A stretch of 64,000 nt of DNA from an uncultured Thermoleophilia bacterium (GTDB lineage: Bacteria > Actinomycetota > Thermoleophilia > UBA2241). Location: contig CAVOWE010000018.1 in NCBI GenBank assembly GCA_963700035.1, forward strand, positions 170,378-234,377, given 5' to 3'. Below are positions 3,208 to 26,938 of this stretch, piece after piece. Under the pieces are notes generated by a model that was not told the origin of the DNA, did not search any database, and was given only the letters and a program-made list of their open reading frames with translations. The stretch's first letter is position 1. Every line of letters starts with the position of its first letter. A program made the position numbers and the translations under genes.

Positions 3208-4928
3208 CTCGATGAGGGAGTCCTCGTCGAGGTCGGCGGTCGCCAGGACGCGCAGCCGCCGGCGCGCCGGAAGCGGCGTCGCGGTCGGCGAGCGCCGGCC
3301 GGCCGTCGTCCTGCGCCCGGCTCATCATCCCCCGCAGCGCCGCGCCCGACGGCCAGCCGGTCGGCCGGCGCGCGCGCCTCTCGCACCTGGGTCCAGTCCG
3401 CGTACAGCTCGCGGTAGAGGCGGGCGCTGGCCGCGTCGGGGGTGAGGCGCTGCACCTGCGCGAGTGCCGCGGCGCCGGTGGCCAGATCGGGGAAGACGCC
3501 GCCGCCGGCTCCGGCGCAGACGGCGGCGCCCAGCACACTCGCCTCGGGCAGGGTGGAGACCGTGAGCGGGGCGTCGAGGACGTCGCAGACGAGCTGCGTC
3601 CACAGGCCACCACGCGTCATGCCGCCGGCCAGGCGGATCTCCATAGGCTCCTCCGCGGCGCGCTCCCCCGACGCTGCCTCCAGCAGTTGCGCGGCGTTCG
3701 CCTTGAGGGCGAAGGCCATGCCCTCGAGGATGGCGCGCGCGAGATCGGCGCGTCGTTCGGCAGCGCGGCTTCGCGCGCCGTCGCTCGGCGGGCCGCCCGC
3801 CTCGCCCCGGGCATCTTCGCCTCCGGCGTCCAGGTGCGTCAGGGAGAGGGTGCCGATGGGCACCGACATCATCTCCCTCGCGTCCATCACCTGCGCGCCG
3901 AGTGACGAGAGCATGCCGCCGGCTCCCGGCGCCGCCCCCGCCGCCTCTGCGACGAAGCGGGCCACCGGATCCGGCGAGTCGGGGTACAGCACGCCGGAGA
4001 ACCATTCGAGCGTGTCGCCCATGGCGCCGGCGTTGCTCTCGACGACCCACCGGCCGGGCACGACGTGGCGACCCACCCACGTGCGCCCGTTCGGATCGGT
4101 GCGCGGCCGGTCTGTCACGAGCTGCAGCGGCGTGGTGCTGCCGGCGACCACCGCCAGCTGCCCGGCCTCGACGACGCCGGCTCCGAGGAGGCCGCACTGG
4201 GTGTCCGCTCCGCCCACGGCCACCGGCGTGCCCGGCCGCAGGCCGAGCGCCTCGGCGGCCGCGATCGTCAGCGCCCCCAGCGGCGTGCCGGCGGTCCGCA
4301 CCGCGGGGAAGAGGCGCCGCGGAAGCCCGAGCCGCTCGATGAGGTCCCACGCCCACTCGCCGGCGGAGAGGTCGAACAGCAGGGTCTCGCCGGCCTGCGA
4401 TGGGTCGGTGGCCGGCACACCGGTGAGCTTGAGAGCGACCCAGTCGCTCAGGCTGAGCGCAGAGACCGCGCGGGACAGGATGTCGGGGGCGTTCTCCGCC
4501 AGCCAGCAGAGCCGCGCGGCCAGGAAGATGGGCGCCGGCCAGTGGCCGGCGCGTTCGTTGAAGACCGCGCCCAGGTCGTCCGCCAGGCGGATGCCCTCTG
4601 CAGCGGCGCGAGCGTCGTGGTTGGGCACGGCGAAAAGGACCTCGTCGTCCTGGCCGACGACCACCGCGCTGAACCTCATGCCGGTGACGGCGATGCCGAG
4701 GATCTCGTCCGGGCGGGCACCGGCCTTCTGGACGGCATCGGCGACGCTCTCGCGCACCAGCCGCCAGCAGTGGTCCGTGTCGATATCGAAGGCGAAGAAC
4801 CCGGCGTCCGGCGCAGGGGTCGGTCTCCACGGCCGGGTCGCGACGATCACGCGGCCGCTGTGCGCGTCCACGAGCGCGCAGCGGACGCTGCGGCCTCCGC
4901 AATCCAAGCCCATCAAGAACGGACTCAT
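3186..4928 (-). CDS. FGGY-family carbohydrate kinase (xylulokinase/L-fuculokinase-like) with a low-complexity C-terminal tail
   Basis: N-terminal MSPFLMGLDCGGRSVRCALVD, GGADTQCGLLGAGVV and the conserved C-terminal region GGMTRGGLWTQLVCDVLDAPL. The last roughly 60 aa are Arg/Pro-rich and may be a frame artefact. Confidence 0.8.
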   Translation of the reverse strand: MSPFLMGLDCGGRSVRCALVDAHSGRVIVATRPWRPTPAPDAGFFAFDIDTDHCWRLVRESVADAVQKAGARPDEILGIAVTGMRFSAVVVGQDDEVLFAVPNHDARAAAEGIRLADDLGAVFNERAGHWPAPIFLAARLCWLAENAPDILSRAVSALSLSDWVALKLTGVPATDPSQAGETLLFDLSAGEWAWDLIERLGLPRRLFPAVRTAGTPLGALTIAAAEALGLRPGTPVAVGGADTQCGLLGAGVVEAGQLAVVAGSTTPLQLVTDRPRTDPNGRTWVGRHVVPGRWVVESNAGAMGDTLEWFSGVLYPDSPDPVARFVAEAAGAAPGAGGMLSSLGAQVMDAREMMSVPIGTLSLTHLDAGGEDARGEAGGPPSDGARSRAAERRADLARAILEGMAFALKANAAQLLEAASGERAAEEPMEIRLAGGMTRGGLWTQLVCDVLDAPLTVSTLPEASVLGAAVCAGAGGGVFPDLATGAAALAQVQRLTPDAASARLYRELYADWTQVREARAPADRLAVGRGAAGDDEPGAGRRPAGARRPRRRFRRAGGCASWRPPTSTRTPSSSCVSSAT

Positions 4929-5275
4929 CTCGGCCTCTCCTCATCTGCCGGACCGGCGGGGAACGAGGGTGCGGCCAGTATATCGTGCACGATCGCCAGG
5001 AGGATGCGCCCGCCGGCCCGAGAGCCCCCACAGGCCGGCGTTCTTCACGCACGAGATGACAGACATCCGCGCCCCGGGAAGCAGTACCATAGACGGACCG
5101 GCGCGCAGACCCGGCCGGGGCGGACCACGCGCTCCGCCGGGCGTGCGCGGACCGCGGCCGCGCCTTGCGGGCGCCCGTGGGCCCGGCAGTCTGGAGGCGA
5201 TGCCGAATGATGGCGTTCAGGGCGTCCACCATGGCGTTGTGCGCGTACCTCGCGAGGAAGGGCAGGTGACCTGAC

Positions 5276-6604
5276 GTGGCGCTCCCCGCCCTGGACGAGT
5301 TCTTCTCGCTTCCCGCGGCGCAGCGAGGCTCTCTGCTCGTCGAGGGCATCCGCGAGGCGCACCGCTACCACTTCGCGCGCAACGCCGCGTACCGGCGCAC
5401 CGTGAGCGCGCGGGGCGTCGGCGCGGAGGTCACCCCCGAGCGCTTCCAGCGCCTGCTGAGACCGGCGGCCCTCACCTTCAAGAGCTACGTGGAGACGATC
5501 GGGCCGTTCCCTCAGGACCATCCGCGCGCCTTTCTCGCCTGGCTCGGCGATCAGCTCTCGATCGCTCTGCCCGCGGATCGCGGGAGCGCGCTGCGGCGAC
5601 GGTACCTGACGATGGAGGGCCTGCTCGCCGACACCGAACGCATCTACGCCGATCTGGGTCTGGAGATGGTGACCTCCAGCGGGACCTCCGGTATCGCGAG
5701 CGTCGTCGCCCGCGACGCCGTCACCGTGGACCTCGCGGTGCGTTCGTTCTTCGCCGGCATCCACCGCGCCTGGGGCATCGCCCGCGACGCCGCCCTGGTG
5801 TTCGTGATGCCGGAGGACACCAGGGTGGCCATGGCCCGATCGGCGCGCCTCGGCGTCAAGCAGCTCGACTGGGCGGCGGGGACCAGCGTCTCCTACACCA
5901 TGCCGTTCTCCGCCACCCCCGACCTGATCCGCTTGCGGGCCGGGCGCACCTTCCACTCGGGCCCACGGGGGGTCGTGGAGAGTCGCGTGCTCCACCCGGT
6001 CCTGGCCTGGGCCGACAGGCGCTGGGTGGCGCGCACGTACGTGGACCGCACGCTGGCGCGCCTGCGCGCGCTCTCGGCCGCCGGCCGACCGCTGATGCTG
6101 CTGGGCGGACAGACGCAACTGCACGCCGTAGCCCTGAGGGCGCGGGTCGCGCTTCCCGCGGGCAGTCGCGTGGCCACCGGTGGAGGGAGCAAGGAGGAGT
6201 ACCCCTTCACGTCCGCCCAGATCCGCGCCGACCTCGAAGTCGCGTTCGGCGGCGTACCGGTCGCCGATGTCTACGGCATGGCCGAGGCCGACTGGGCCGC
6301 GTTCGAGTGTCCTCGCGGCAACTATCACATCCCGCCCTGGGTGTACGCGGTGGTGACCGACGACGCCGATCGCGTCGTCCCGGGACCGATGGCTGCGGGG
6401 ATGCTGGCCTTCTTCGACCCCGTGGCCGGCGGCGACCTCATCCCGCCCTTCTTCCAGAGCGCCGACCACGTGACCCTCGTGAACGGCGCCGACCAGTACG
6501 ACGCCGCGCTGGCCTGCGCGTGCGGCTACGACTCCGCGTACATCGCCGGCGGGATCCGGCGCGTGGACCTCATGGACGAAGCCGGCTGCGCGGCGCAACT
6601 GTGA
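5276..6604 (+). CDS. LuxE-like acyl-protein synthetase (adenylate-forming enzyme)
   Basis: 442 aa with a TSSGTSGIASVV adenylation P-loop-like motif. The overall layout resembles the LuxE family. Its stop overlaps the GTG of the next gene (GTGA). Confidence 0.55.
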   Translation: MALPALDEFFSLPAAQRGSLLVEGIREAHRYHFARNAAYRRTVSARGVGAEVTPERFQRLLRPAALTFKSYVETIGPFPQDHPRAFLAWLGDQLSIALPADRGSALRRRYLTMEGLLADTERIYADLGLEMVTSSGTSGIASVVARDAVTVDLAVRSFFAGIHRAWGIARDAALVFVMPEDTRVAMARSARLGVKQLDWAAGTSVSYTMPFSATPDLIRLRAGRTFHSGPRGVVESRVLHPVLAWADRRWVARTYVDRTLARLRALSAAGRPLMLLGGQTQLHAVALRARVALPAGSRVATGGGSKEEYPFTSAQIRADLEVAFGGVPVADVYGMAEADWAAFECPRGNYHIPPWVYAVVTDDADRVVPGPMAAGMLAFFDPVAGGDLIPPFFQSADHVTLVNGADQYDAALACACGYDSAYIAGGIRRVDLMDEAGCAAQL

Positions 6605-8218
6605 GCCCGGAGCGCGTGAACGGCGACGTGCGCGACGGCTTCTGGCTGCCGCGGAAAGTGCGCCAGGAGGTCCTGAGCCGGGCCACATGGCAGACCGCCC
6701 GCCTCTGCGGCGGCGCACTCGTGGAGGCGGGGGCCGCTCGAAGAGGCACGGCGGGCACCCAGGATGCCGCCGCCGTGCCGATCCGCTGGCCGCGGCTCTC
6801 GCCGCAGCAGTGGACCGCTCTGCTCGCCGCGCTGCAGGCAGCTCGCGGCGTGGCCGGCCCTGAGGCCGCCGGACGCTGGGAGGCCGCCCTTCTGAAGGCG
6901 CTCCCCGGCCTGGCCGGCGAGATGCCGGACATGCTCGCGCGGCTCTCGGCCTCCACGGGCTACAGCCCCGGAGATGCTGACCACGGCGCTGGCCGGCGGG
7001 GACCTGGTCGATCCTTCCTCGCTGGCCGCGGCGATGGACTTCCGGCCGACGTGGGCGGCGGCCTCGAGCTGGGTCACGCATCCGCGCCTCGGAGGCCGCA
7101 TCCGCTTCTTTCCGCACGGTCTCGCGGGGCGGGCCAGGGCCGTGCTGACTCCGGACGCGGCCCTCTTCCGCCCCGCCCCGCCGGTGGACCTCACGCTGGG
7201 CTTCGCGGCGGGGAACGTGCCGGGCACCGCGCTCATCATCGCTCTCCTCGGCGGTCTGGCCGGCCACGCAGCGTCCGGCGACGCGCGCGCGCCGGCCGTC
7301 CTGGTGCGCAACAGCCGCCACGAGCCGCTGTTCACCCCGTGGGTGTTGTCCGCCGTGGAAGCGGTGGACCCCGATCTGGTGGCCGGCACGGCCGTCATGA
7401 TCTGGGACTACGACGATCCTGGACTGCAGGCGCTCCTCCTGCGCTCGGCCGGACTGATGATGGCGGCCGCGGACGACGCCACCATCGCGGCTCTCGACGC
7501 CCGACGCGCGCGCTCCGCCCCCGGCCTGCGCTTTCACCGGCACGGCCACAAGGTCAGCTTCGCCACTCTCGGCGCGGGTTGGGCGACGCGGCCTCGTGCC
7601 CCTCGCCTGGCCGCACTCGACTCCAGCTTCTGGGACCAGAACGGCTGCCTGTCCGCCCGCGTGCACTTCGTGGAGGGGAACGCGTCCGCATACGCCGAGG
7701 CGCTCACCGGGGAGATGCGGGCTCTCAGCCGCGAACTGCCTCGCGGGACGACCCCGCGGCGCTACACTCGGCGCGCCTTCGACGCCTACGCGGCGCTCAC
7801 GGGCGCGGGCGGCGTGCGCCTGTTCTCAGACTACGACGACGAGTTCGCCGTCGTCGTCGACGGACGCTCCTGGGATGCCGGCACGCTGCGCAGGGCGGCC
7901 AACGCCTGTCAGGGGCGGGTGGTCGTGGTGCGGCCGGTCCGGGATGTGATGGATGTGCCCCGCCTGCTGCAGGCGCTGCCGGCGGGCAACCTGCAATCCA
8001 TGAGCCTGCTGCTGGACGACGAGCGCCTGGAGCCGTTCGCCCAGGCCGTGGGAGCCTGCGGCGTGACGGCACTCCGCAGTCTGGGGCGCGGCGCCTTCCC
8101 TCAACTGGCCTGGTCCTGGGACGGCCTGCTCCCACCGGACGTGGGATCCTTGCGCCCGCCCGGGCACTTCACTACCATCGAGCCCGATCCGCCAGTCACG
8201 TCCATTCTGGAGGTGTGA
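6601..8218 (+). CDS. LuxC-like acyl-CoA reductase, interrupted by an apparent frameshift near 6960-6975
   Basis: GTG at 6601 overlaps the LuxE-like stop (frame of track ORF 6307..9882, reading VSPERVNGDVRDGFWLPRKVRQEV...). The protein-like sequence then continues in the frame of track ORF 6974..8218 (LTLGFAAGNVPGTALI...SARVHFVEG). Judged LuxC-like by size and aldehyde-dehydrogenase-like architecture. Confidence 0.5.
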
Positions 8219-8221
8219 CCC

Positions 8222-8710
8222 ATGGGATGTCGGCGCGTGCCCCTGTCACTGATCTTGCTCGCGATCGCCCTGCTGGCGACCGCGGCGCTGGCCGCCTCCT
8301 GCGGCGGGACCAGCTCGTCCGCCGGGCAGGCCACGTCTCCCGCAACGCCCGCCTCCACTTCACCTGCGAGCACCACGCCGCTCGCCGCCGAGGACGCACA
8401 GGCGGTCCGCGACCTGGCTCTCGCCTACTGGGCGGCCTACAACGCCTACGATCCCGAGAAGGCCATCTCCTACCTCGACGAGAGCTACCGGCCCGCTCAG
8501 GAGAAGATCGTCCGCGACGATATCGGGCGCATCAAGACCTTCGGCGTGAAGCTCGGCGTCAGCGAGAAGAGCGCGCCCGTGCTCATCGGGCCGGACCAGG
8601 CCGAGATGTACCTCAACATGAAGACGCCGACGGGCACGCGGACGCTGTGGATGAAGTTCGCGCGACGCGGGGATGCCTGGACGATCACCTACGTGGAAGA
8701 AGTCAAGTAG
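8222..8710 (+). CDS. Lipoprotein with SnoaL/NTF2-like (DUF4440-type) fold
   Basis: Signal peptide plus lipobox LAASCGG, then an Ala/Ser/Thr/Pro linker, then DLALAYWAAYNAYDPEKAISYLDESY...GDAWTITYVEEVK. The start is 3 nt after the LuxC-like stop. Confidence 0.7.
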   Translation: MGCRRVPLSLILLAIALLATAALAASCGGTSSSAGQATSPATPASTSPASTTPLAAEDAQAVRDLALAYWAAYNAYDPEKAISYLDESYRPAQEKIVRDDIGRIKTFGVKLGVSEKSAPVLIGPDQAEMYLNMKTPTGTRTLWMKFARRGDAWTITYVEEVK

Positions 8711-8745
8711 GGCCGGGTCCCTCGGTCCGCCTCGAGAGGCGACCG

Positions 8746-9810
8746 TCAGAGGCGCCCTGCGCCACCCGGGGGCGGGGCCTCGCCGGGAAGATAGAGGTAG
8801 TCGGTGTAGCCCGGTCCCGGCTGCGGCGCGCCGCGGTCGCCGGGTCGGACGACCAGCAGCACGAGGATCGCGGCCACGGCTGCGGCGACGCCCACGACGA
8901 GGACGACCCATCCCCAGCGCCGCAGATCGCTCGTGATCGCGCCCCAGATCGCCGCCGAAGCGGCGTGGGGTATGCCGGCGTCGTCCGTGCGGCCCAGGTA
9001 GCTCATGCGGCCGATCGCAAGGCCTACCTCGAGCGCTACCATGGCAAGCGTCAGCCCTGCGCCGACCCACGCGGCGGCGCGCAGCCGCCGGGGAGCCACA
9101 AGGACCGAGCCGAGCAGAAGCCCGAGCGTCGCGATCGGCAGGAGCGGGTAGAGGCGGTCGAGCGTCAGGACGTACCTCCCGGCCTTGGCGAACGGGCGCG
9201 CATCGAACAGCATGACGTCGCCCGTCTTGAGGGTCTTGGGGAGCGGCTCCGGAAGCGAGACGCCGGACGAGGCCAGAAGGTCGGTGACGTCGGCAGTGAC
9301 CTTCTTCAGGTCCAGGCCGATCAGGTCGCTGGCGGTCACCTTGAGGTTGCCTTTGCTGTTGATGACGTCGACGAGGATGGGGTGCACCTTGCGGTTCGCG
9401 GTCGCCCAGAACTCACGGAAGGCGCTGCTCTTCACGGCCTGAAGGGTGAGCTCGGCGGTCAGGTCCTCCAACTGGGCGCTCAGCGGTCCGGTGAACTCCC
9501 CCAGCTCCGCCGGCAAGGGGCCGGGCAGCACCTGGTCCGCGTCGAGGGCGCCGCTCACCTGCTTCGCCAGGGCGTCGGCGACCGCCTCCTGCACGGCCGC
9601 ATCGTCGGCCACCGGAGTGACGGTGGCGACATAGCCGTCCACGTCCATGATGTCGCGGTGGACGTACACGCTGGCGAGGGCCGCCGGCGCCGTCAGGCAG
9701 CCGGCCACGACCAGCACGACGGCGAGCGTCCGGCGCCACCCGCCGGTGGCACGGGGCCGAGATGCGGCGGCGGCCTCTTCGATCCTGTAGTAGCTGACCG
9801 GCGGCTGCAC
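8746..9810 (-). CDS. Integral membrane protein of unknown function (N-terminal TM, soluble domain, C-terminal TM cluster)
   Basis: The protein-like part begins around VQPPVSYYRIEEAAAASRPRATGGWRRTLAVVLVVAGCL. Hydrophobic C-terminal helices ...LGLLLGSVLVAP...WVVLVVGVAAAVAAILVLLVV. The start codon is uncertain (track ORF 8746..9975). Confidence 0.45.
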   Translation of the reverse strand: MQPPVSYYRIEEAAAASRPRATGGWRRTLAVVLVVAGCLTAPAALASVYVHRDIMDVDGYVATVTPVADDAAVQEAVADALAKQVSGALDADQVLPGPLPAELGEFTGPLSAQLEDLTAELTLQAVKSSAFREFWATANRKVHPILVDVINSKGNLKVTASDLIGLDLKKVTADVTDLLASSGVSLPEPLPKTLKTGDVMLFDARPFAKAGRYVLTLDRLYPLLPIATLGLLLGSVLVAPRRLRAAAWVGAGLTLAMVALEVGLAIGRMSYLGRTDDAGIPHAASAAIWGAITSDLRRWGWVVLVVGVAAAVAAILVLLVVRPGDRGAPQPGPGYTDYLYLPGEAPPPGGAGRL

Positions 9811-10123
9811 GGCGTTTCCCCCTCGCTCTCGCAGGGATCCACATCCCCAGGACAGCGCTACCCCGCTCCGGTCCGGAGGTAACTCGTGGACCGTCGTTGG
9901 GCAGAGCCCCGACCCTTCCATCGACCCTACCATCCTGCTAGGGTTCGTGCAGGTCCTCCACGAGGAGAACACCATGCGCGGGGATGAGCAGCAGGGGGGT
10001 CCAGTGAGTCTCGTCGCCTATCTCAAGGGCTGCCTGGCGGCCGGGCGTCCACGTCACGTCGCCCACCCCGTTCGCGTCGCCGCCCCGACCCCGACGGCTT
10101 CCCTCGGCGAGGACTGACCTCTC

Positions 10124-12971
10124 GTGCTCGGGGCGTTCACCATCCGCAGCCGGGACAAGACCGAGGAGTTCCCGGTCACGCAGGCCATCGTGAACGTGGG
10201 CCGAGCCGCCGACAACGACCTGAGCCTGCCGTACGCCACCGTCTCTCTCCACCACGCGCGCGTCCTCGCCGACGCCTCGGGCTGTCGCGTCATGGACCTG
10301 GGCAGCTCCAACGGCACCCGCCTCAACGGCGTGGAGATCCCGGTCAAGGTGGCTCAGCCGCTTCGTGAGGGCGACCTCGTCGAGATCGGGCCGTTCCAGC
10401 TGCGTTTCCACGCCTCGCCGGGTCGCGTCGCTGCGCCCGGCCAGGCCGGGACTCCCGCCGCGGTGGCCGCGCAGGCGCGAGCGGGTCACACCGTCGTCCT
10501 GCCTCCGGACCTGCCCGCCCGTCTGATCGTGAGCACCCCCGAAGGGACCCGGGAGTTCCCCCTCAAGAAGGACTCCGTGACCCTGGGCCGCGAGTCGGAC
10601 AACGACATCGCCATCGAGGCCGAGGCGGTCTCCCGCCATCACGCCGTCATGAAGCGCCGCGGCCCCGCGTACCTCATCACGGACCTGGGGAGCACCAACG
10701 GCCTCAACGTGGCGGGGGAGCTGGTCAAGGAGAAGCTGCTGGCTCCGGGCGACTTCGTGTGCATCGGCCATAGCGTCACGCTGGAATACCGGGGGGCCGA
10801 GGCCCTCGCGGCGGACATGGCCGCGGCTGCTCTGGTCGGGGCGGGCGCCTACGGCCCGGGGCCCGCCGCCGGCGCGCCTGGCGAGCAGGCTCCGGCCGTC
10901 TTCGATATCCGCGACGGACACTCGCTCATTCTCGGCCGCGGCGACGAGACGAGCGTCCACATGGCCCACCCCCAGGTGTCCGCGCAGCACGCCGAGGTGC
11001 AGCGCCAGGCGGACCAGTACGTCATTCGCGACATGGGCAGCAGCGCCGGCACCTACGTCAACGGTCAGCTGGTGAGCCAGCAGCCTCTCCGCGAGAACGA
11101 CGTCATCCGCATCGGCCCGAACCGGCTGGTGTTCCAGGGCGGGCAGCTGCGGATGGTGAGCGAGGAAGGATGCCTGCGCCTGGACGCCTTCCACCTGAGC
11201 AAGGTCGTCGGCAAGGGTCAGCGCATCCTGCGGGACGTCTCGCTCTCCATCAAGCCGCAGGAGTTCGTCGCCGTGGTCGGAGGCAGTGGCGCCGGCAAGT
11301 CGACGCTCGTGAACGCCCTCTGCGGCTTCAAGCCGGCCACAGAGGGCGCCGTCCTGCTGAACGGCGTCGACCTCTACGGCAACTTCGACGCCTACCGCAA
11401 CGAGATGGGCTACGTCCCTCAGGACGACATCATCCATCTCGACCTCCCGGTGTCCAAGGCCCTGGACTACGCCGCCCGCCTGCGCATGCCCGCCGATACC
11501 AGCCGGTACGAGCGTGAGCAGCGTGTGCAGGAGGTCATCGACGAGCTGGACCTCAAGGCCTGCGCCGAGCGCACCGTCAGGCAGCTCAGCGGGGGGCAGC
11601 GCAAGCGCGTGTCCATCGGCGTCGAGCTGCTCACCCGGCCGAGCCTGTTCTTCCTCGACGAGGCGACCTCCGGGCTCGACCCGGCCACCGAATCGCAGAT
11701 GATGAAGCTCCTGCGCAAGCTGGCCGACCAGGGACGCACGATCATCCTCATCACGCACGCCACCAAGAACGTCATGGCGTGCGACAAGGTGGTCTTCCTG
11801 GTGCGTGGGGGTCAGCTCGCATTCTTCGGTCCTCCGGAGGACGCGCTCAAGTACTTCGGCGTCGAGGAGTTCGACGAGATCTACGAGAAGCTGGAGTCCG
11901 GGGCCTCGCCCGACGAATGGGCGCAGCGCTTCCTCGCCTCCCCCCAGCTTCAGGAGTACGTGGTGCGACCGCTGAGCGAGGTGGCCGGGGCGTCAGCGGG
12001 GCTCTACGGCGGCCGCCTCGACGGCGGCAACGGCGGCGGCGCCCGGGCGCGAGGCGGGCCGGCGGCTCCCGGAGCCCACATCAGGCGCTCCTCGTCCTGG
12101 AAGCAGTTCCTGATCCTCTCGGGCCGTTACCTCGACATCATCCGCCGCGACAAGAAGACGCTGGTGCTCCTTCTGGCCATCTCGCCGGTGCTCGGGGTAC
12201 TGGACTTCGTCACGTGGAAGCGCAATCTGTTCGACCCAGTGGACGGGAGCGCCACCAAGGTCGTGACGATGCTGTTCATGGCCTGCCTCATCGGCGTCCT
12301 GGTCGGCACCATCACCTCGGTGCGTGAGATCGTCAAGGAAGACCCCATCTACCGGCGCGAGCGCATGGTGTGCATCCAGGTGTTCCCCTACGTGGCCTCG
12401 AAGATCGCCGTGGGGTCGATCTTCGCCCTGTACAGCGCGCTCGTCCTCTTTCTGTTCAAGATCGGCGCCGTCGACTTCGGCCACCTGAGCGGCATCGGGT
12501 ATCTCGCAGCTCCTGATCACTTTCGTGCTCTGCACGTTCGCAGGGCTCATGTGGGGGCTTCTGGTATCGGCGGTCGCCCCCACCGAGGATCGCGCCATGC
12601 TGCTGGTGATCCTGGTGCTGGTGCCCCAGTTCATCTTCTCGGGGGGCATGATGCCCGTGTCCGATCTGGGGGTGGCGGGCAAGGTCTTCGGGACGCTGAC
12701 GTCCACGCGCTGGGGGCTGGGGGCGATGGCCACGGTCGCGGAGATCAAGACCGGTGCCGGCAAGGCGGCCGACATGTCGGACACCGTGCTGCCGGGGATC
12801 AAGGGGCTGGAGACTACCGCGGAGAAGGTGGCGCTGGTGCACTCGCTCGACAGCCAGTACGGAGCGATCTTCAACGTCAACATCGCCTTCTACTGGGCGA
12901 TGTCGCTCGTCCTGATCGCGGCACTGACGGTCATCATCTTCCTGCTGCAGAAGCGAAAGGACACGTTCTGA
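10124..12971 (+). CDS. Three FHA domains fused to an ABC transporter ATPase and an ABC-2 (ABCG/White-like) permease; apparent frameshift near 12500-12530
   Basis: Three FHA domains (MLGAFTIRS...GCRVMDLGSSNGTRLNG; LITDLGSTNGLNVAG; VIRDMGSSAGTYVNGQ). Walker A GGSGAGKST, signature LSGGQRKRVSIG, Walker B LFFLDEATSGLD. Permease TM helices. The C-terminal permease part continues in track ORF 12525..12971 (LVPQFIFSGGMMPV...FYWAMSLVLIAALTVIIFLLQ). Confidence 0.8.
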
Positions 12972-13254
12972 CCGGGCTGGCCGCGCCGGCGCCGTTCGGC
13001 CGCGGCCGCGGTGCCCCACGGCGCCGCCCGACACTTGTCTTTCCGCGCTGCTGCGAGAGAATGGGTGACAGGACGGCGCCTCGGGCAGCGACCAGAGGGG
13101 GGCAGGTGTCTGCTCATCCGGACAACGAACGCCGGGAGGCGATCGGGCCCCGCCCCGCTGCGCGGGTGGCTACGGGACGCGGCCGCGACGCCTTCATCCA
13201 TCTGTCGCCGAAGCGCGGCGAAAGCCCGGCGCCGAGAGGCGCGACGGGGGGGTC

Positions 13255-15634
13255 ATGGCAGACGAGCTGATCGGGCGCACGCTGGGGCGCTACAAGATCA
13301 CCGCCCTCGTGGGACGCGGTGGCATGGCCACGGTCTACCGGGCCACGCATCCCGGTCTGGAGCAGACCGTGGCCGTCAAGGTGCTGCACGCGCACATCGC
13401 GACCGACGCGGACCTGCTCGGCAGGTTCCAGCAGGAGGCGCGGGCGGTCGCGGCCCTTCGCCATCCCAACATCGTGCGCGTCGTGGACTTCGACTGCATC
13501 GACAACGTGTACTTCATGGTGATGGAGTACATCGACGGTCTCACCATGTCCGCGCACCTTCGCGATATGGCTGCCAAGGGGCGTCGCATGCCGGTCGCCG
13601 AAGTGCTGCGGGTCTTCGAGCCGCTCTGCTCCGCGGTGGACTACGCGCACGGGCAGGGCATGATCCACCGCGACATCAAACCGTCCAACGTCCTGCTCAC
13701 CGCGCAAGGCGAGCCGGTGCTCACCGACTACGGTATCGCCAAGATGATCGGGGTCACGCAGCATACGGCTGCCGGCACGGTCATGGGTTCTGCCTTCTAC
13801 ATGTCGCCGGAGCAGGCCCAGGGTGTCGCGGTGGACGGTCGCAGCGACATCTACTCTCTCGGCGTCATGCTGTTCGAGTCGCTGGCTGGGCAGGTGCCGT
13901 ACGAGGGCGACACCCTGGCGACCGTCCTCGTCAAGCACATCACGGCGCCGGTGCCGGCCGTGTGTCCGCTCAACGACGAGCTGCCGCCGCTGCTCGATGG
14001 CCTGATGCGCGTGGCCCTGGCCAAGGATCCGGACGAGCGCTTCCAGACGGGAAAGGCGCTGGCGGCCGCGTTGCGGCAGGGGCTCGCGCCGCTCGCCGCG
14101 CAGAGCAGCGCCGTGGCGGCGAATGCGACGCGGGTGGAGCGGCCGCCGAGCGGTGGCGCGGCGCCGCAGGGCTTCACGCGCGTGGAGACGCCGACGCCGG
14201 CGCCGGCGAAGCCGCCGCGCGAACGGGCGACCGCGCACGATGTGTTCATCAGCTACGCGGCGAGCGACAAGGCGGTTGCCGATGCTGTCTGCACGGCGCT
14301 CGAGAGCGAGAACATCCGCTGCTGGATCGCGCCGCGCGACGTACTGCCCGGCCAGAGCTTCGCGCGGGCTCTGGTCAACGCCATCCATGAGGCTCGCGTG
14401 TTCGTCCTCGTGTTCTCGTCGGCCACCAACAACTCCCAGCAAGTGGAACGCGAGCTCGACAGGGCCGCTTCCTCGCGACTGCCGATCCTCCCCCTGCGCG
14501 TGGAGGACGTGCTGCCGCGCGAGTCCATCGAGTACTACCTCGCCGGCCAGCACTGGCTCGACGCGCTCACGCCGCCGCTCGCCGACCATCTTGAACGCCT
14601 CACCGTGGCGATCGCGGCGCTGCTGCAGCGGTCGGCGCCGCCGCTCGCCGAAGGCCCGCCGGAAGCAACGGCTTCAGAGCCGGCCGTGTGGGCGACCGGC
14701 ACTCCAGCGGGAACAGCCTACGAGCCGGCGCCGGCGGCGACCACGTACGAGCCCGCGCCGGAGCCCGAAGCAGAGGCGCCGGTGGCTGAGGCCGAGCCCG
14801 CGCCGGAGCCCGAAGCAGAGGTGCCGGTGGCTGAGGCCGAGCCTGTGCCGGAGCCCGAAGCAGAGGCGCCCGTGGCTGAGGCTGAGCCCGCGCCGGCGGC
14901 GACCACGGATGAGCTCGCGCCGGCGACGCAGCTCAAACCGGAGGCGCCTGAGGCTGAAGCCGAGCCTGCGCTGGAGGTAGAGGCGCCCGAGCCCGTCGGC
15001 GCACCCGAGGCGGCAGTGGCGGTCGCGGGCCTGCAGGCGGCGACGACCTACGAGCCGGCGCCGGAGGCTGAGCCTGAGCCCGAGCCGGCAGCGGAGCCGC
15101 CAGAGCCCGAAGCCGAGCCTGAGGCCGTGCTCGAGCTCGAGCCTGAGGCGCTTGAGGCTGAGGCCGAGCCGCGAGCCGGAGGCAGAGGCTCCGGGGATCG
15201 TGCCCCTGCCGGAGCCTGAGGCCGTGATCGAGCCCGAGCCTGAGGCGGAGGCGCCTGAGGCCAGGGCCGAGCCCCCGTCGGACTTGACGACTCTCGAGCG
15301 GCCGGTGGAGGCGACCGAGCCGCAGGCCGCCACGACCTATGAGCCGGCGCCCGTGCCGGCAACGGGAACCTCCGAGCCGGCGTTCGCCGCCGAACCGACG
15401 GTGATGGCCGCGGCTGCGACGGCGGTGACACCCGGCGACGGTCCGACGCCCGTGGCTGCGACCGTGCTGGTGGCGGAGTCGCCGCCGGCCGGCGTGCCGG
15501 CCCTGGGCGAACGGGCCGGCGAAGCGTCAGAGCCTTCCCGGCAAGCGCTTCACAAGCCCACGCTGATCGCCGCGGCGGCTGTGGGAATCGCGTGGATCGT
15601 GATCCTCCTGGTCATCGACCAGGTGTTTCGCTAG
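13255..15634 (+). CDS. Hanks-type Ser/Thr protein kinase fused to a TIR domain, a Pro/Glu/Ala-rich repeat linker and a C-terminal transmembrane anchor; apparent frameshift in the repeat region near 15150-15220
   Basis: Kinase motifs LGRGGMATVYRA, VAVKVL, HRDIKPSNVLL, DYGIAK, SPEQ. TIR_2-like block HDVFISYAASDKAVADAVCTALESENIRCWIAPRDVLPGQSFARALVNAIHEARVFVLVFSSATNNSQQVERELD. Repeats EPAPEPEAEAPVAEA. The terminal helix PTLIAAAAVGIAWIVILLVIDQVFR is in track ORF 15152..15634. Confidence 0.8.
14749..14883 (+). repeat. Three tandem copies of a 45-bp coding repeat (gagcccgcgccggagcccgaagcagaggcgccggtggctgaggcc; encodes EPAPEPEAEAPVAEA), with degenerate copies further downstream
   Basis: Read directly from the sequence. 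Lies in the kinase linker. Confidence 0.8.
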
Positions 15635-15717
15635 CTCCTTCGACGGCGGACCGCCGAGCGCTCGCGCCGGTCCGCCCTCTTCGCCTCAGCGGGTGACGTA
15701 CGGCTGGGTCTGCGGCG

Positions 15718-16947
15718 CTACGCGGAGCGCGGCTGGCTGCGGGCGACGGGCGGCGTCCACCACGCCAGCGCGACGACGACCAGGTCGACGCCCAGCGCCA
15801 CCAGGACCCACAGCGGGGTGTCGGGCGGGTAGAAGAAGGCCCAGGCGAAGACGGCTGCCGTGGCGAGGCCCGCGACGATGCCGAGCGCGACTCTCGCCTG
15901 GCCGAGCGCGCCGCGCCGGCGGCTTGGAGTCGCAGCCCGCATGACGACGTAGAACTGGACGGCGAACAGCACCCCGCCGCCGAACACGACCAGCCACTTG
16001 AGCCACGAGGCGCCGCCGCCTGCCGTTTCGGCCATGCTCTTCACGCGGTCGAGGTTGACGCTCGCGGCTTTCGCGAGGCGTGGCGCTTCGGAGGACTGCT
16101 TGAGGTCGGTGAGCACGTCGATAGCAGCCGAGTCGTCGCCGTTCTCGGCGTCGATCAGCGCGAGTCCCATCTTGGCGTAGTCGTTGGTCGCCGTCTCGTT
16201 CGAGGCGGTGAAGTCGGCCTCGGCTCCGTCGAGGTCGCCCTTCTCGAGTCTCGTCATCCCGCGCTGGTAATACGCGGCCGCGAGGTTGGCGGCCGTCCTC
16301 GCCACGCCTTCATCAGGCTTCGACGCCACGATGTCCTTGAGCGAGGAGATGCCTTCGTCGTACTCACCCGCGGCGCACTGGGCCGTCGCCAGGGCCAAGT
16401 CGGTCTGCGGGCTGGCCGCGACGGCGGCGGACTTCTCGAAGTACGCCAGCGCGTCGGCGTACTGCCCGTCCCGTGCGGCGATGAGGCCGAGGTTGTACAG
16501 CGCCGCCGCCTTCACGCTGTCGCCGTTCTTCGTCGGCGGCGTGTCCTGCGCCTTGCGCGTGGGCGCCGCGGCCTTGTCCGTGTTGTCCTGGAAGAGGTAG
16601 TCGGCGCCGATATTGAGGTCGGCGCCTCGGTAGCGCTGGTTGAGGCGTAGCACCTTCTGCAGCAGCGGCAGCGCCTTGCCGTAGTCGCCGGTCTTCACGT
16701 AGCACACGGCCAGGTTGTTGAGGGCGTCGGTGTCTGAAGGATCCAGCTTGACGGCTTCCTTGAACAGCGCCGTCGCCCGGGCGACGTCGCCGGCGGCGAG
16801 AGCCTCGCAGCCGAGGTTGTACGGGTGCTTCGTGGCACCGGGCGCGGGCCCGGCCGTCACGGCCAAGCCCGCGAGGACCAGCAGGACGGCGACGCCCGCG
16901 AGGGCGCAGGCCCGCCGGCATCTGCTCAGAATGTGGTAGGTGGGCAT
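15718..16947 (-). CDS. TPR-repeat membrane protein (N-terminal signal/TM, TPR region, C-terminal multi-TM region)
   Basis: Real start MPTYHILSRCRRACALAGVAVLLVLAGLAV (ATG reverse complement at 16945-16947) lies inside the longer track ORF 15718..17541. TPR-like segments ALFKEAVKLDPSDTDALNNLAVCYVKTGDYGKALPLLQKVLRLN. Confidence 0.7.
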   Translation of the reverse strand: MPTYHILSRCRRACALAGVAVLLVLAGLAVTAGPAPGATKHPYNLGCEALAAGDVARATALFKEAVKLDPSDTDALNNLAVCYVKTGDYGKALPLLQKVLRLNQRYRGADLNIGADYLFQDNTDKAAAPTRKAQDTPPTKNGDSVKAAALYNLGLIAARDGQYADALAYFEKSAAVAASPQTDLALATAQCAAGEYDEGISSLKDIVASKPDEGVARTAANLAAAYYQRGMTRLEKGDLDGAEADFTASNETATNDYAKMGLALIDAENGDDSAAIDVLTDLKQSSEAPRLAKAASVNLDRVKSMAETAGGGASWLKWLVVFGGGVLFAVQFYVVMRAATPSRRRGALGQARVALGIVAGLATAAVFAWAFFYPPDTPLWVLVALGVDLVVVALAWWTPPVARSQPRSA

Positions 16948-16958
16948 GGTGGTTCGGC

Positions 16959-17357
16959 TCACGGCGTCATAGGCTGCGCCTGGCAGGAACAGGGCTGGTC
17001 CGACTGGCAGGTGCAGCTCGACACGCCCTCGCAGGTACAGACCGCGTCGCAGGTGCATGCTCCTCCTCCGCCTCCACCTCCCGAGTCCGCCACGCAGCTG
17101 CAGGCGGCCACGGACTCGCAGGTGCACACCAGGTTGCAGGTGCAGACGAGATCGCACGTGCAGAGGGCGCCGCCGAACGCGTCGCGCCCGGTGAGCTTGG
17201 TCTTGGTCGCGTGGGAGCGCGTCTCCTTGCCGGCCTTCTGGGTCTTCTTCGGTGTCTTCTTGGGCCCGGAGACCTTGCGCGAGGGATCCTCGGGCGCGAC
17301 GAAGACCTCGGGATCCGGATACTCGTAGTCGGGCTGCGGCGCGCTCCAGTGCAGCAC
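16959..17357 (-). CDS. Small Cys-rich CxC-repeat peptide (candidate RiPP precursor: K/P/T-rich leader plus a core with eight C-x-C motifs and a Gly7 spacer)
   Basis: Track ORF of 132 aa. The core reads CTCDLVCTCNLVCTCESVAACSCVADSGGGGGGGACTCDAVCTCEGVSSCTCQSDQPCSCQ. Codon third positions are strongly G/C, as in genuine genes here. It sits between the radical-SAM gene and the TPR gene in one orientation. Confidence 0.45.
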   Translation of the reverse strand: MLHWSAPQPDYEYPDPEVFVAPEDPSRKVSGPKKTPKKTQKAGKETRSHATKTKLTGRDAFGGALCTCDLVCTCNLVCTCESVAACSCVADSGGGGGGGACTCDAVCTCEGVSSCTCQSDQPCSCQAQPMTP

Positions 17358-17510
17358 CTCGGGCGACGCGCTCGACGTGGGCGCGGCCTTCAGGGTGTCG
17401 TCGGGCGCGCTCTCTCCGGCGCGGAGGGAAGCCCATTCGACCGGCGCCTCGCTCTCGTAGATCGAGAGCTTGGGCGACTCGTAGCCGCCGTCGCGCGAGG
17501 CCGCCGGCGT

Positions 17511-18914
17511 CTAGACCCTCGCTGCGCTGGTCGTCGGACACCGGATCACCTCCTCGAGCTGGTCCAGCGTGAGCCGCCGGTTGATCTCACAGCGCGCGAC
17601 CACGGCATCATCGGCGCCCGGATAGAGCCGCTTGGACGGGCAGTCGCCTGCACAGTGGTACTTGGCGAAGCAGCGCGCGCAGCGCGGCGCGTCGTTGACG
17701 GTGAGATGGCGCAAGTGCGTCGACCCGCGCGGCATCGAAGGCGAACGACCGGTGCGTGGGGTCGTAGGAGCCGTAGATGAACGTGTCGGCGCGGGAGTCG
17801 TCGCGGCCGGTGACCTCGTAGCAGGCGGTGACGTCGCCTTCGGTGGTGATATTGAAGCTGGGCCTGCTCGCCTGACAGAACGAACAGGCCAGCGACGATT
17901 GGTGCGCGCCGGAGTAGGCCACCTCGACGCCGTGACGCGCGGCGTACTCGCGGCACTCGCGAAACGCCTCGACGAAGCGCTCCGCGTTCGGCGGCTGCAG
18001 GCCATTGCTGATGGAGCGGCCGCAGGCGAAGAGCGGTTCGAGGTGGATGGTGTTGAGCCGGTAGGTGTCGACGAGGTGTCGTACCGTCTCCAGGGCGTGA
18101 TCGAGCGCGTGGGACGTGCACGTGAGCCTGGTGCCCAACGTGCAGTCGCTCTCTGAGAGGCGCGCGAGCGTACGCTCGACGGCGGCCGACGAGGCGCCGC
18201 CGCCGGCCCGCGGCCGCAGGCGGTCCTGCACGGCCGCCGGGCCGTCGATGGACACCATCACCGACGTCATGCTCTCCGCCAGGTACTCCCGCATGGCGTC
18301 GTCCACGACGCCGTTCGTCGCGGTGCCGGTGGAGAGCTCGAGGGCGTGCTTTTCGCAGCGACGCCGGGCGTGAGCCACGCAGTTCTTCAGGGCTCTCGCC
18401 CGCGAGCGTCGGCTCACCGCCGCCGTGGAAGGTGACGGTCACCTCTGGCTGGCCGCTCGGCGACGGCGTTGTCGACGACGAAGTCGATGGCATCGAACGC
18501 GACCTGCTCGTCGAGGTAGCGCGGCTGCTCGCCACCGGACGCATAGCAGTAGACGCAGCGCAGGTTGCAGGCCGTGGTGAGGAACAGCGTGACGGCGGTG
18601 GGCCGGAGTGCGGCCGGCGGCGGGTCGTCGGTCACTGGTCGGTCGGAGGCGACAGCCGACGTCAGGGCCGGCGCTGCGCCGCTCGCCCGGCGTCTCCCGT
18701 GCTCCTTGCCGATGAGCTGAAGCTCCACGAGAAGATCCAGCACCTCGCGCGTGCCGGCGTTGCGAGTCACGGCGCGCTCGGCGGAGATGTCGGCGAGCAG
18801 GTTGAGGGCAGCGTCGTTCACCACCACGCTGGTCTGGAGCAGAGGCGCGTACACGAGGTGGTCGCGTCCGCGCGGCAGCGAGAAGACCTCGGTGGCCAGC
18901 CGGTACCTGGTCAC
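17511..18914 (-). CDS. Radical SAM enzyme with C-terminal SPASM domain (peptide-maturase type), broken by about three apparent frameshifts
   Basis: Spliced across track ORFs 18414..19094, 17546..18544, 17608..18417 and 17511..18005. CxxxCxxC motif TTACNLRCVYCYAS. GGEPTL motif VTFHGGGEPTLAGE. LSTGTATNGV...MVSIDGPAAVQDR. SPASM cysteines CSFCQAS...GDVTACYEV...CARCFAKYHCAGDCP. The GTG at 18914 overlaps the stop of the upstream PqqD-like gene. Confidence 0.75.
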
Positions 18915-19344
18915 GCCCGTTCTCCCGGGATACCGTTGCCCGACCCGTAGACGCCGAACACGAGACCTGCCCCCGAAAGGGTCTGGAGGCAGTCCCTGGT
19001 GTCGGCGCGCGCCGCGGCCGCCGGGATGCCGTACGCGGCGCTGAGGAGGGCGGCGAGGTCGTCCACAGTACGCCGCCCGTCGACGCCGCGCCATACGAAC
19101 GCCGCCGACCGGTTCAGGCGGAAGACCGGTCCGTGCGGGTCGACGGGCGTGGCGCGGAGTTCCACGTCACGCCCGCGGGCTGTCTCGACGAGGTTCTCGG
19201 CGCGTCGCGGCCGGGCCGTCCCAGCCGACGCGGCAGGGCCGTTCCGCGCGCTCCAGAGGCGACCTGTGGCGAGCGCCACGGCGCCGCCGGCGACGGCCAC
19301 GAGGAACGTCTTTCTGGTCGTCGCCCAGCTTGGCCCGTCCACGC
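18911..19344 (-). CDS. PqqD-like peptide-chaperone (RiPP recognition element) protein with an N-terminal hydrophobic segment
   Basis: C-terminal part of track ORF 18911..19777: VDPHGPVFRLNRSAAFVWRGVDGRRTVDDLAALLSAAYGIPAAAARADTRDCLQTLSGAGLV. This matches the PqqD-family pattern (LN.sA..iW...DG.rTv.ei...L...Y.v....a..D...fl..L...GL). The start is assigned to a GTG near 19332-19344. Confidence 0.5.
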
Positions 19345-19513
19345 GTGCGGCCACCACACGACCCCCTTGGCCCCCATTCGCAGGGGGCTGATCGCCCTGC
19401 GCCTGAGCCCAATCGTGCCCCCTCACGAGTCTCGCGTCAAGGATTGCGGGCAAGAGACACCTTGACATGCGCGAGTCATGGCGTAGAACGGGTATGGAAG
19501 TGACTGTGGAAGG

Positions 19514-21003
19514 GTGAGCGGCGCGAGACCATCGCGCCTGGATCTGGGGGTGGTGCGAATGAGACCGCGATTTCGCAGCGCAAGCACGGACACGTCCTAC
19601 GATCGCCGCCGGGGATGGCGCTCCGTCGGCCGCGGTGCCGTGGCCACACTCCTCCTCGTCGGCATTCTGCTGGTCACGGTCTTCGCCGCGCAGGCCGCCT
19701 CGGCGGCCGCGCCGAAGATGGCGAAGCTCACGGCGTCCGGGCCTTTGGAGAAGCCTGACGGCGGCGTGCCGGTACAACGCGGGACGAGCCAGTCCGAGAG
19801 TCTGCCGCCGGTCGTGCCCGGCGTTACCGCGAGCCCGTCAGGAGGGCCCGGCGTTGGCGCTGCCGGCACGATCTTCTACGACGGGTTCGAGGGGAGCATC
19901 GCGTCCTGGACCACAGCGGGTGGTAACGATCCGACGTGGGCGTGGTTCACGTATCGGCCCTACGCGGGGTCGTGGTCGGCCTATTGCGCGGGGTGGACCG
20001 GGAGCGGGTTCAACTCTCCGCCCACTACCTACTACAACAACATGAACGCCTGGCTCGAGGCGGGGCCGTTCAATCTCTCGGGCGTCACCTCGGCGACCCT
20101 CGCCTTCAAGCTCTGGCTCAACAGCGAGATGAACTACGACTGGCTGTACTGCATGGTCTCGGTCGACGGCCAGCACTACTATGGACCGGGCGACTCGGGC
20201 AACAGCCAGGGCTGGGTCGATCGAAGCCTCGATCTCACGAACGTCCCGACCCTCGGCAACGTCTGCGGCCGCAGCCAGGTGTGGATCGCCTTCATCTTCA
20301 CCAGCGACGCGTCAGGTACCGCCGAAGGCGCCTACGTTGACGAGGTGAGCATCACCGGCAGCGGTGGGGCGGCGGCGAGGTGGGGCTGTCTTGGATGGCG
20401 ATCGCTCGATAGTGCCTTTCGCGGGAAGGGTGGATCTCACGGGAGTACTCCTGGACGACACCTCCGGGTCCCTGCTGCCCAACCGGCAAGTGGGGTTGTT
20501 CTGGTCCCAGGAAGACAAGATCGACGGGACTTGGAATCTGTTTGAACACGTTCACTTCGTCGACGGGCCAGTACTCCATGACGGCCACCAACGTCCAGCG
20601 GCTCACCTATTTTGCCATGGTCTTCGCCGGTGACGGCCAGTACTCGGAGGGCATGGAGCAACCTGGTCAAGGTGATGGCACGCGCCAAGCTCACGCCTCC
20701 GGCCGTTCCGTCTCGCGTCCCCGCCTACCTCAAGATCACGAGCTGGGGCACGCTCAAGCCGCTGCACACGGCCGCGCAGAACAGGTCCAGCCACACCAAG
20801 CTCTCCGTCGAGCACTACTGCGGCGGCAGGTGGCGGCTGCAGTACGAATCGTTGTACGCCAGTCGTACCGCAACACTCCTCCGCGACCGATGTACAGCGT
20901 GGGCCTGCGCTACGCACCCGGCAAGTGGCGGATCCGCGCGGTGCACCGGGACAGCGACCACGCCACGACGACCTCGTCCTGGAGGAACTTCACGGCGAAC
21001 TGA
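19514..21003 (+). CDS. Secreted protein with a MAM/galactose-binding-like domain; reading frame switches several times (20350-20850)
   Basis: Signal peptide LLLVGILLVTVFAAQAASAAA, then GTIFYDGFEGSIASWTTAGGNDPTWAWFTYRPYAGSWSAYCAGW...YNNMNAWLEAGPFNLSGVTSATLAFKLWLNSEMNYDWLYCMVSVDG. Protein-like continuation in the frames of track ORFs 20364.., 20542.. and 20612.., ending ...WRNFTAN. Confidence 0.5.
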
Positions 21004-21574: not shown

Positions 21575-21661
21575 TGCCGAAGTGGCGGAACCGGTAGACG
21601 CGCTGGACTCAAAACCCGGTGCCCGAGAGGGCGTGTGGGTTCAAATCCCACCTTCGGCACC
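21575..21661 (+). tRNA. tRNA-Leu (anticodon CAA), type II with long variable arm, CCA encoded
   Basis: GCCGAAGTGGCGGAACCGGTAGACGCGCTGGACTCAAAACCCGGTGCCCGAGAGGGCGTGTGGGTTCAAATCCCACCTTCGGCACCA. The acceptor stem GCCGAAG/CTTCGGC, the D-loop GAACCGGTAG and the anticodon loop CTCAAAA are near-identical in layout to E. coli tRNA-Leu(CAA). Confidence 0.85.
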
Positions 21662-21831
21662 ATCTCTCGCCGCGCCTCCGGATGCCGCCCTCGTGGGCAG
21701 GCACGACGCGGTCGCACCGCGCAGAGAAACCGCCGGCCCGGCATCTGGTACCATTACTGTCCTGAACACGACTGCGTGCGCGGTGGTCTGCCCGTCGTCC
21801 GGGCAGCCGCACGCGGGGAGGAGCTTGGCGC

Positions 21832-22515: not shown

Positions 22516-22559
22516 GCGATGGCGACGGCCCGCCGCCCCAACGAAGTGAAGGACGCAGC

Positions 22560-24594: not shown

Positions 24595-24652
24595 AGGGCT
24601 TTGAGGCCGGCTTCGCAACCGGAACCCGCTGGTACTGGTCGCCGCCGCCGCG

Positions 24653-26907: not shown

Positions 26908-26938
26908 GAGCATGGGCGCGGCGGGGTAGGAGAGAGAC

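Follow-up and report, generated by a model that had tools for sequence, protein, structure and literature searches.

To our knowledge, Rv1747 of Mycobacterium tuberculosis is the only ABC transporter regulated through forkhead-associated (FHA) domains that has been studied. It is a virulence factor, and several kinases of M. tuberculosis are able to act on it. Rv1747 has two FHA domains, and the linker residues Thr150 and Thr208 are phosphorylated by the Ser/Thr kinase PknF, which activates the transporter; both FHA domains bind these residues, FHA-1 is required for function, and pknF lies 62 bp upstream of the Rv1747 gene, with which it is co-transcribed (PMC3138270). Phosphorylation also causes the regulatory part of Rv1747 to cluster (PMC11326607). 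Here we describe a gene for an ABC transporter with three FHA domains, and the Ser/Thr kinase gene that follows it, in a stretch of 64,000 nucleotides (the window) of contig CAVOWE010000018.1 from an uncultured Thermoleophilia bacterium. The locus is an ordinary member of a large bacterial family of FHA-ABC transporters related to Rv1747 and, by analogy with that system, it probably encodes a phospho-regulated ABCG-type exporter together with its Hanks-type kinase.

Support for this view comes from the domain content, the phosphothreonine-binding residues, the ATPase motifs, the ABCG fold, the disordered linkers, the adjacency of the kinase and the enrichment of a motif in kinase tails. Pfam, run on the frame-corrected product, finds FHA (PF00498) in three separate stretches (E 2.4e-50, 169 bits in total against a cut-off of 20.7), followed in the same polypeptide by an ABC ATPase and an ABC-2/ABCG-type permease. 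A separate hidden Markov model (HMM) of our own likewise counts three FHA domains. The architecture given by the original prediction, an earlier note on this DNA that had likened the locus to Rv1747 and PknF, is thus borne out, with matches far stronger than chance would give (coordinates and motif residues are collected in Table 1).

The residues that define an FHA domain are the GR, SxxH and NG motifs (PMC1262709), of which the Arg and the Ser alone touch the phosphothreonine directly, both being essential (PMC3138270). All three contacting pairs are present in the window protein, as R27/S41, R156/S170 and R272/S286. In an alignment of 115 sequences the G-R pair is found in 112-115 members for each of the three domains; the His of the S-x-x-H motif is invariant, and its Ser is found in all 115 sequences for the first two domains and in 99 for FHA3. 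The motif columns of FHA1 are invariant or near-invariant throughout, and the Asn of the N-G motif, a residue in contact with the backbone of the bound peptide, is kept in FHA1 (N63) and FHA2 (N192). Comparison with proteins of known structure, which for Rv1747 covered its two solved FHA domains, pairs FHA1 with Rv1747 FHA-2 (6CAH; E 6.5e-10, every motif residue aligned), FHA2 with the FHA domains of GarA and EmbR (~1e-10), and FHA3 with those of Rv0020c, OdhI and GarA (~1e-8 to 1e-7), both Rv1747 domains matching FHA3 at ~5e-5.

An AlphaFold model, built for homologue P0001 on a 98-sequence alignment (mean predicted local distance difference test score, pLDDT, 84.9; predicted template modelling score 0.74), comprises three beta-sandwich domains and a six-helix membrane domain, with disordered stretches at residues 102-120, 235-255 and 627-653. 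The first two of these, with pLDDT below 50, fall in the linkers that follow FHA1 and FHA2; FHA3 abuts the ATPase in the model, with no disordered linker between them. Linker 1 contains two candidate phospho-acceptors, T110 and T123. The T123 column is Thr in 74 of the 115 homologues and has a hydrophobic residue at +3. An intramolecular binding mode like that of GarA, acting through T123, was considered and set aside, since T123 falls outside the GarA phospho-sites in the alignment; the residue stays a mere candidate. In 59% of homologues linker 2 has at least one Thr.

The ATPase motifs are all intact: Walker A GGSGAGKST (386-394), the Q-loop Q433, LSGGQ (488-492), a Walker B motif LFFLDE (508-513) with its catalytic Glu, the D-loop SGLD and the H-loop H545. 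The permease has six predicted helices (679-697, 713-731, 761-779, 796-814, 825-843 and 923-941), the last two separated by a loop of ~70 residues. When the model was compared with the PDB by Foldseek, the top 40 matches were all ABCG half-transporters (ABCG16, ABCG2, ABCG25, ABCG1 and ABCG5/G8); their TM-scores, normalised to the target, lie between 0.72 and 0.85 for alignments of ~620 columns. A sequence search agrees, placing CDR1, ABCA and ABCG2 on top. By its predicted fold, then, the transporter is an ABCG-type half-transporter, with the nucleotide-binding domain (NBD) preceding the transmembrane domain (TMD) in one chain; an importer-type ATPase served by a separate permease gene, an arrangement that would have spoken against the original prediction, is not what the gene encodes. 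From the fold class we infer that transport is outward.

How unusual is a transporter with three FHA domains? When GTDB was surveyed with a single genome for each species, loci encoding relatives came to light in at least 594 species genomes. The nearest is in a metagenome-assembled genome (MAG) labelled 'Actinomycetes bacterium' (88% identity), followed by members of the Gaiellales (57%) and Thermoleophilia (52%). More distant relatives occur in the Chloroflexota (Dehalococcoidia, Anaerolineae, Ktedonobacteria and Chloroflexia), in cyanobacteria (Oscillatoria PCC 10802, Acaryochloris, Thermosynechococcus and Altericista), and also in Vulcanimicrobiota and Bacillota. We used our own HMM to count FHA domains in the 84 transporters of 82 loci, two loci having two each: three were found in 59 transporters, two in 17, four in seven and five in one. 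Three FHA domains are therefore the majority layout of the family, with the two of Rv1747 at its low end, and the third domain, which had been singled out as an extra, is not a special feature of this locus. The FHA domain next to the ATPase is of the FHA3 type in nearly all family members and the N-terminal copies are variable, which suggests that FHA domains have been gained and lost by N-terminal duplication. Extra genes encoding only FHA domains are present in 22 of the 82 loci. Tandem paralogous FHA-ABC genes were seen in two Anaerolineae/Chloroflexota MAGs, L082 and L028, and their products could form heterodimers. Our literature searches, in which cyanobacterial work was included, found no description of a multi-FHA ABC transporter besides Rv1747; a search on three FHA domains gave nothing relevant, and one combining FHA, ABC transporter and Chloroflexi gave a single unrelated paper.

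The second component is the kinase. In 34 of the 82 loci a Ser/Thr kinase gene is found no more than 1.5 kb from the transporter gene, and the number rises to 40 when the whole of the fetched flanks is considered; both counts are lower bounds, as many contigs end early. In the cytoplasmic segment that follows the kinase domain, kinases adjacent to FHA-ABC genes carry repeats of the form T-hydrophobic-hydrophobic-E/D. The tails of kinases near these genes contain 46 such matches, where shuffling of the residues would lead one to expect 3.2. The window kinase alone has six in its tail (14600-15540) against 0.59 expected, three in copies of 'AATTYEP' and the others TAYE, TTLE and TALE. Elsewhere the repeats take other forms: 'GATMVE' four times in the L038 kinase tail, 'KGTVVE' and similar sequences in three to five copies in L035, L037, L045, L046, L049, L057, L065 and L075, and 'TVYE' and 'TVVE' in the Gaiellales kinase of L004. 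In the orthologues L001, P0244 and P0245 of the window kinase, 'ATTYE' is kept within tails that otherwise evolve fast. FHA ligands are known in which an acidic residue occupies the +3 position relative to phosphothreonine, and FHA1 of Rad53 prefers pT-x-x-D. The T-x-x-E repeats are candidates for multivalent FHA docking sites.

It could be argued that the transporter does not work with the neighbouring kinase at all, the FHA array being governed mainly by other kinases or serving as a phospho-independent scaffold. Such a view would accommodate the loci in whose available flanks no kinase was found, about half of the family, as well as the 283-nt gap between the transporter and kinase genes of the window, for which no promoter or terminator signal was found that would speak for or against co-transcription; both the action of several M. 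tuberculosis kinases on Rv1747 and the phosphorylation-dependent regulation of its clustering (PMC11326607) may also be cited for it. We consider it unlikely, however. Adjacency in 34 of 82 loci is far above chance for kinase genes that are scattered through genomes, and in the clade of the window the pairing is kept down to 55% identity. The motif repeats go with adjacency, there being 43 in the tails of 28 adjacent kinases and only three in those of 14 kinases that are merely nearby, and the phosphothreonine-contacting Arg and Ser are invariant or near-invariant.

Several observations nevertheless weigh against an Rv1747-like system regulated by its neighbouring kinase. About half of the 82 loci, as noted, lack a kinase in the available flanks. 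The window kinase gene is downstream of the transporter gene across a 283-nt gap, compared with pknF at 62 bp upstream of Rv1747. Linker 2 of the window protein contains no Ser or Thr, and FHA3 has Ala308 in place of the canonical Asn; this column holds Ala in 41 of the 115 sequences and Asn in another 41. Among the window open reading frames (ORFs) scanned, which do not include every ORF, there was no PP2C phosphatase. Finally, the definition of the T-x-x-E motif is a post hoc one, and related Anaerolineae supply many of the loci, so that the statistics given for it are biased and should be taken as indicative only.

Even so, we regard phospho-regulation of the Rv1747 kind as the probable function of the pair, in which phosphorylation, phosphothreonine binding by the FHA domains and the direction of regulation are matters that, like export, we infer. 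The transporter would act as a homodimeric exporter, by analogy with other ABCG half-transporters, with its three FHA domains on two disordered linkers forming a cytoplasmic regulatory module ahead of the ATPase. The membrane-anchored kinase would phosphorylate Thr residues, the candidates being the six T-x-x-E sites of its own cytoplasmic tail, which include the three 'AATTYEP' copies, and, on the transporter side, T110 and T123 of linker 1. Binding of the resulting phosphothreonines by the FHA domains would then recruit the kinase, link transporters to one another and to the kinase, and boost transport activity. FHA3, which appears to be rigidly attached to the ATPase, would be the likely point at which the signal enters the motor. 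The higher valency, with three FHA domains on one side and several T-x-x-E sites on a tethered kinase on the other, would favour stable kinase-transporter and transporter-transporter assemblies.

This account presupposes an intact transporter, and here the gene itself needs comment. The ORF listing of the window contains an ORF of 1048 amino acids at 10124..13270 on the forward strand, just as the original prediction had it. Its translation is protein-like up to '...GAVDFGHLSGIGY' and thereafter Arg/Gly/Ala-rich, and an ORF in the next frame, 12525..12971, carries on with typical membrane-domain sequence. The frame breaks at 12506/12507, at the start of permease helix 4. Three relatives were compared with the window across this region: L001 (a 285-kb ENA contig, ~87-90% identical), L002 (a JGI contig, 92.5%) and L086 (a JGI contig, 95%). 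Without the extra base at 12507 the product of the gene can be aligned over its entire length with P0001 (949 residues, 95% identical) and with 113 other full-length homologues. Out-of-frame read-through is consequently the source of two artefacts, a gene end at 13270 and 16 nt of overlap with the kinase gene, the latter having hinted at translational coupling; the transporter stops at 12971 and the ATG of the kinase at 13255 follows after a gap of 283 nt. In this spacer no promoter-like or terminator-like site was found (scan of 9700-15800), nor any match to an Rfam family.

A split of the permease near 12500-12530 had been reported earlier. The frame break is there, but it is most likely a sequence or assembly error and not a property of the gene, since the base is absent from all three relatives, selection appears even on both sides of it, and similar insertions occur elsewhere in the 19 kb of the window that could be compared. 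The ratio of non-synonymous to synonymous differences (pN/pS) is 0.13 against L002 and 0.21 against L001 upstream of 12507, and the downstream values, 0.11 and 0.19 respectively, are equal to these. Single-base insertions relative to L001, L002 and L086 are found at 3279, 3352, 6964, 9829, 12507, 15172, 16972, 17713, 18395 and 18459, making ~9-10 isolated 1-nt insertions in a comparable 19 kb, or about one per 2 kb. Eight are within coding sequence and disrupt five conserved genes: an FGGY-fusion gene, LuxC (6616-8218), the transporter, the kinase and a radical-SAM gene (17514-18914). The insertion at 9829 is intergenic and that at 16972 is at a gene end; in a sixth gene, for an InhA-like peptidase, a change of frame is ambiguous. 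These positions come from the direct comparison, a plot of GC content at third codon positions over the whole window being too noisy for frameshift counts. They look like a general indel-error problem of the window sequence, and similar fragmentation affects other long-contig assemblies of the clade (P0023, L083, P0244 and P0245). Programmed frameshifting at 12507 was rejected, as the base is absent from all relatives compared and like insertions occur in unrelated genes.

Could the insertion instead be real, cutting the permease after three helices and leaving a pseudogene with transport lost? The extra base is present in the sequence as given, and homologue P0023 (799 residues), from a related assembly, is cut short within its membrane domain by a frame break at another site. 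We find this very hard to credit, however, given that the base is missing from relatives 87-95% identical, that pN/pS is as low after the break as before it, and that so high a density of insertions is irreconcilable with strong purifying selection; the fragmentation of related long-contig assemblies (L083, P0244 and P0245) points the same way. With 12507 most likely a sequence error, and a real mutation of very recent date the less probable alternative, the host organism probably makes the full-length transporter.

The kinase of this clade differs from its counterparts elsewhere. Pfam agrees with the original prediction that the adjacent kinase carries a TIR domain (Table 1). The tail beyond it is Pro/Glu/Ala-rich, its three motifs reading 'AATTYEPAP' in full, and the protein ends in a membrane anchor. 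In the window, and there only, an extra base at 15172 divides the ORF in two, and the joined product has ~792 residues; the orthologue in L001 is intact at 738 residues, with the kinase and TIR domains, the Pro/Glu/Ala-rich tail, a helix at the extreme C-terminus and no extracellular part. Because the anchor is C-terminal, the kinase and TIR domains are both predicted to be cytoplasmic, without an extracellular sensor. Among the adjacent kinases, a TIR domain together with a C-terminal membrane anchor is found only in the clade of the window; partner kinases elsewhere in the family are classical receptor kinases, with a kinase domain, juxtamembrane segment, membrane helix and an extracellular TPR or other domain.

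Fusions of kinase and TIR domains are rare, amounting to ~8 among the best 120 matches to a query spanning both domains, and bacterial examples are not described in a survey of TIR proteins (PMC7075850) or one of kinase architectures (PMC1262709). Four adjoin an FHA-ABC gene where the context is available, namely those of the window, L001, the P0242 locus and L083, the last retaining the pairing at 55% identity. L002 keeps the arrangement of transporter and kinase, its contig running out within the kinase domain, short of the TIR region. The stand-alone small proteins P0121, P0122 and P0124 share the layout of TIR domain, Pro-rich linker and C-terminal helix and are 71-74% identical in the TIR domain; unlike the window kinase, these uncharacterised tail-anchored proteins lack a kinase domain and the TTYE motifs. 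As they are its closest TIR relatives, the kinase-TIR protein looks like a tail-anchored TIR protein to which a kinase domain has been added.

A TIR domain raises the thought of an anti-phage or conflict system, in which the kinase would switch the TIR domain, itself acting as an NADase effector or generating a signal, and the FHA-ABC protein would be a sensor or an exporter of a TIR-made nucleotide. The Glu of 'VERELD' in the window TIR_2 domain does align with that of 'QKELD' in the bacterial PdTIR, the closest TIR relatives are the small uncharacterised tail-anchored proteins, and the kinase domain matches the PD-T4-6 models of PADLOC. Those matches, however, like that to mad3, span generic kinase and ABC ATPase domains only, and were rejected as evidence for a defence system. 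The locus is in conserved chromosomal synteny with metabolic genes and not in a defence island, and the partner kinases of the wider family are ordinary receptor kinases without TIR domains. A kinase with the TIR domain first, P0290, is found among PIN toxin genes, but no FHA-ABC gene adjoins it. A defence role thus seems to us scarcely probable.

A related thought, which we put forward as speculative and on balance improbable, is that the autophosphorylated T-x-x-E tail and the three FHA domains build a multivalent membrane cluster, comparable to the condensates of Rv1747, that gathers TIR domains, so that phospho-signalling, export and a TIR activity, whether NAD-cleaving or signalling, become coupled. 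TIR domains are activated by oligomerisation. If this were true, the coupled four-gene membrane module would be one found only in this actinobacterial clade.

The four genes in question are the core conserved in the clade: a lipoprotein gene, a divergent gene for a membrane protein, the transporter and the kinase. The first two are kept directly upstream of the transporter in L001, L002, L003, L083 and the P0242 locus. Further upstream, at 5276-8218, is a pair encoding a LuxE-like acyl-protein synthetase and a LuxC-like acyl-CoA reductase, also kept in L001 and L002. Downstream of the kinase, the block at 15718-21000 encodes a membrane-anchored TPR protein (reverse strand), a 187-residue protein, a radical-SAM enzyme and a PqqD-like protein, which together resemble a peptide-maturation pair, and an InhA-like peptidase with a MAM domain. 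This block is present in L001 and L086 and absent from the P0242 locus, where an FMN reductase gene comes directly after the kinase. The only Rfam match in the window is a tRNA gene at 21576-21659. At 21766-29119 there follow genes for an FMN reductase, an AMP-binding ligase, an MBOAT acyltransferase, an esterase and two unannotated proteins, a Dlt-like set for acyl or alanyl transfer that is in synteny with what lies downstream of the kinase at the P0242 locus. The LuxE/LuxC pair, the lipoprotein and the ligase, acyltransferase and esterase set hint weakly that the substrate of the transporter may be an envelope lipid or polymer.

Table 1. Features of the transporter-kinase locus and its neighbours (window positions), with the tandem transporter genes of two other loci (positions in the locus named)
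Feature	Position	Strand	Remarks
FHAx3-ABC-ABC2 transporter gene, real extent	10124..12971	+	948 aa, minus extra base 12507
FHA domain 1	10124..10411	+	Residues 1-96; G26-R27, S41-x-x-H44, S61-S-N63-G64-T65; Pfam
Disordered linker 1	10412..10516	+	Residues 97-131; holds T110 and T123 ('GHTVVL', codon 10490-10492)
FHA domain 2	10517..10789	+	Residues 132-222; G155-R156, S170-R-H-H173, S190-T-N192-G193
Disordered linker 2	10790..10894	+	Residues 223-257
FHA domain 3	10895..11143	+	Residues 258-340; G271-R272, S286-A-Q-H289, S306-S-A308-G309-T310
ABC ATPase domain	11156..11923	+	Pfam ABC_tran, residues 369-516, E 7e-30
ABC-2/ABCG-type membrane domain	12083..12971	+	Six predicted helices; Pfam ABC2_membrane, residues 661-849, E 1.8e-15
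Extra base	12507	+	Window CTCGCAGCTC; CTCG-AGCTC in L001, L002, L086
Out-of-frame read-through, non-coding in that frame	12508..13270	+	From ORF frames; source of apparent overlap with kinase gene
Spacer, transporter stop to kinase start	12972..13254		283 nt; 208 nt in L001, 284 nt in L002
Ser/Thr kinase gene	13255..15634	+	Pfam Pkinase E 6.5e-44, TIR_2 E 1.7e-21
Kinase domain	13291-14061	+	In kinase gene 13255..15634
TIR_2 domain	14233-14568	+	In kinase gene 13255..15634
C-terminal membrane anchor	~15563-15628	+	HKPTLIAAAAVGIAWIVILLVIDQVFR; encoded in ORF 15152..15634
Predicted lipoprotein	8222..8710	+	162 aa; conserved core; no Pfam match
Membrane protein	8752..9810	-	~353 aa; divergent from transporter; conserved core; no Pfam match
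L082 tandem pair	1832-5776 and 5848-10575		Four-FHA copy beside five-FHA copy
L028 tandem pair	2706-5702 and 5911-9258		Two three-FHA copies

We conclude that Rv1747 stands at the two-domain edge of a far larger family that extends across several phyla, in which three FHA domains are the norm and from two to five occur. The matching T-x-x-E arrays that partner kinases often carry suggest a model in which the degree of kinase-transporter coupling depends on valency, and the tail-anchored kinase of the window clade, with its TIR domain, is an unusual fusion that may be of interest in its own right.

Finally, how far does the likeness to known systems go? The window protein and Rv1747 alike are single polypeptides that begin with an FHA module on disordered linkers and continue with an ABC ATPase and then an ABC-2/ABCG-type permease, and in both cases a Hanks Ser/Thr kinase gene lies alongside. 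This much of the original comparison with Rv1747 and PknF, a probably FHA-regulated ABCG-type half-transporter beside a Hanks kinase, stands; the gene order is reversed. The window protein also has three FHA domains and two linkers where Rv1747 has two domains and one linker, its second linker offers no Thr, and its kinase differs from PknF in the TIR domain and the C-terminal tail anchor. The eukaryotic ABCG half-transporters, ABCG2, ABCG1, ABCG5/G8 and the plant proteins ABCG16 and ABCG25, have the same NBD-TMD order and fold, with six helices of which the fifth and sixth are separated by a long loop. Their sequence identity to the window protein is only 18-22%, however, their substrates are unrelated or unknown, and no ABCG protein is known to have an FHA regulatory module. 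Conversely, GarA/OdhI, EmbR and FhaA/Rv0020c have FHA domains of the same sequence type, the best PDB matches being at ~1e-10, and likewise work with Hanks kinases, but they are soluble one-FHA regulators of enzymes or of transcription that are not fused to a transporter.

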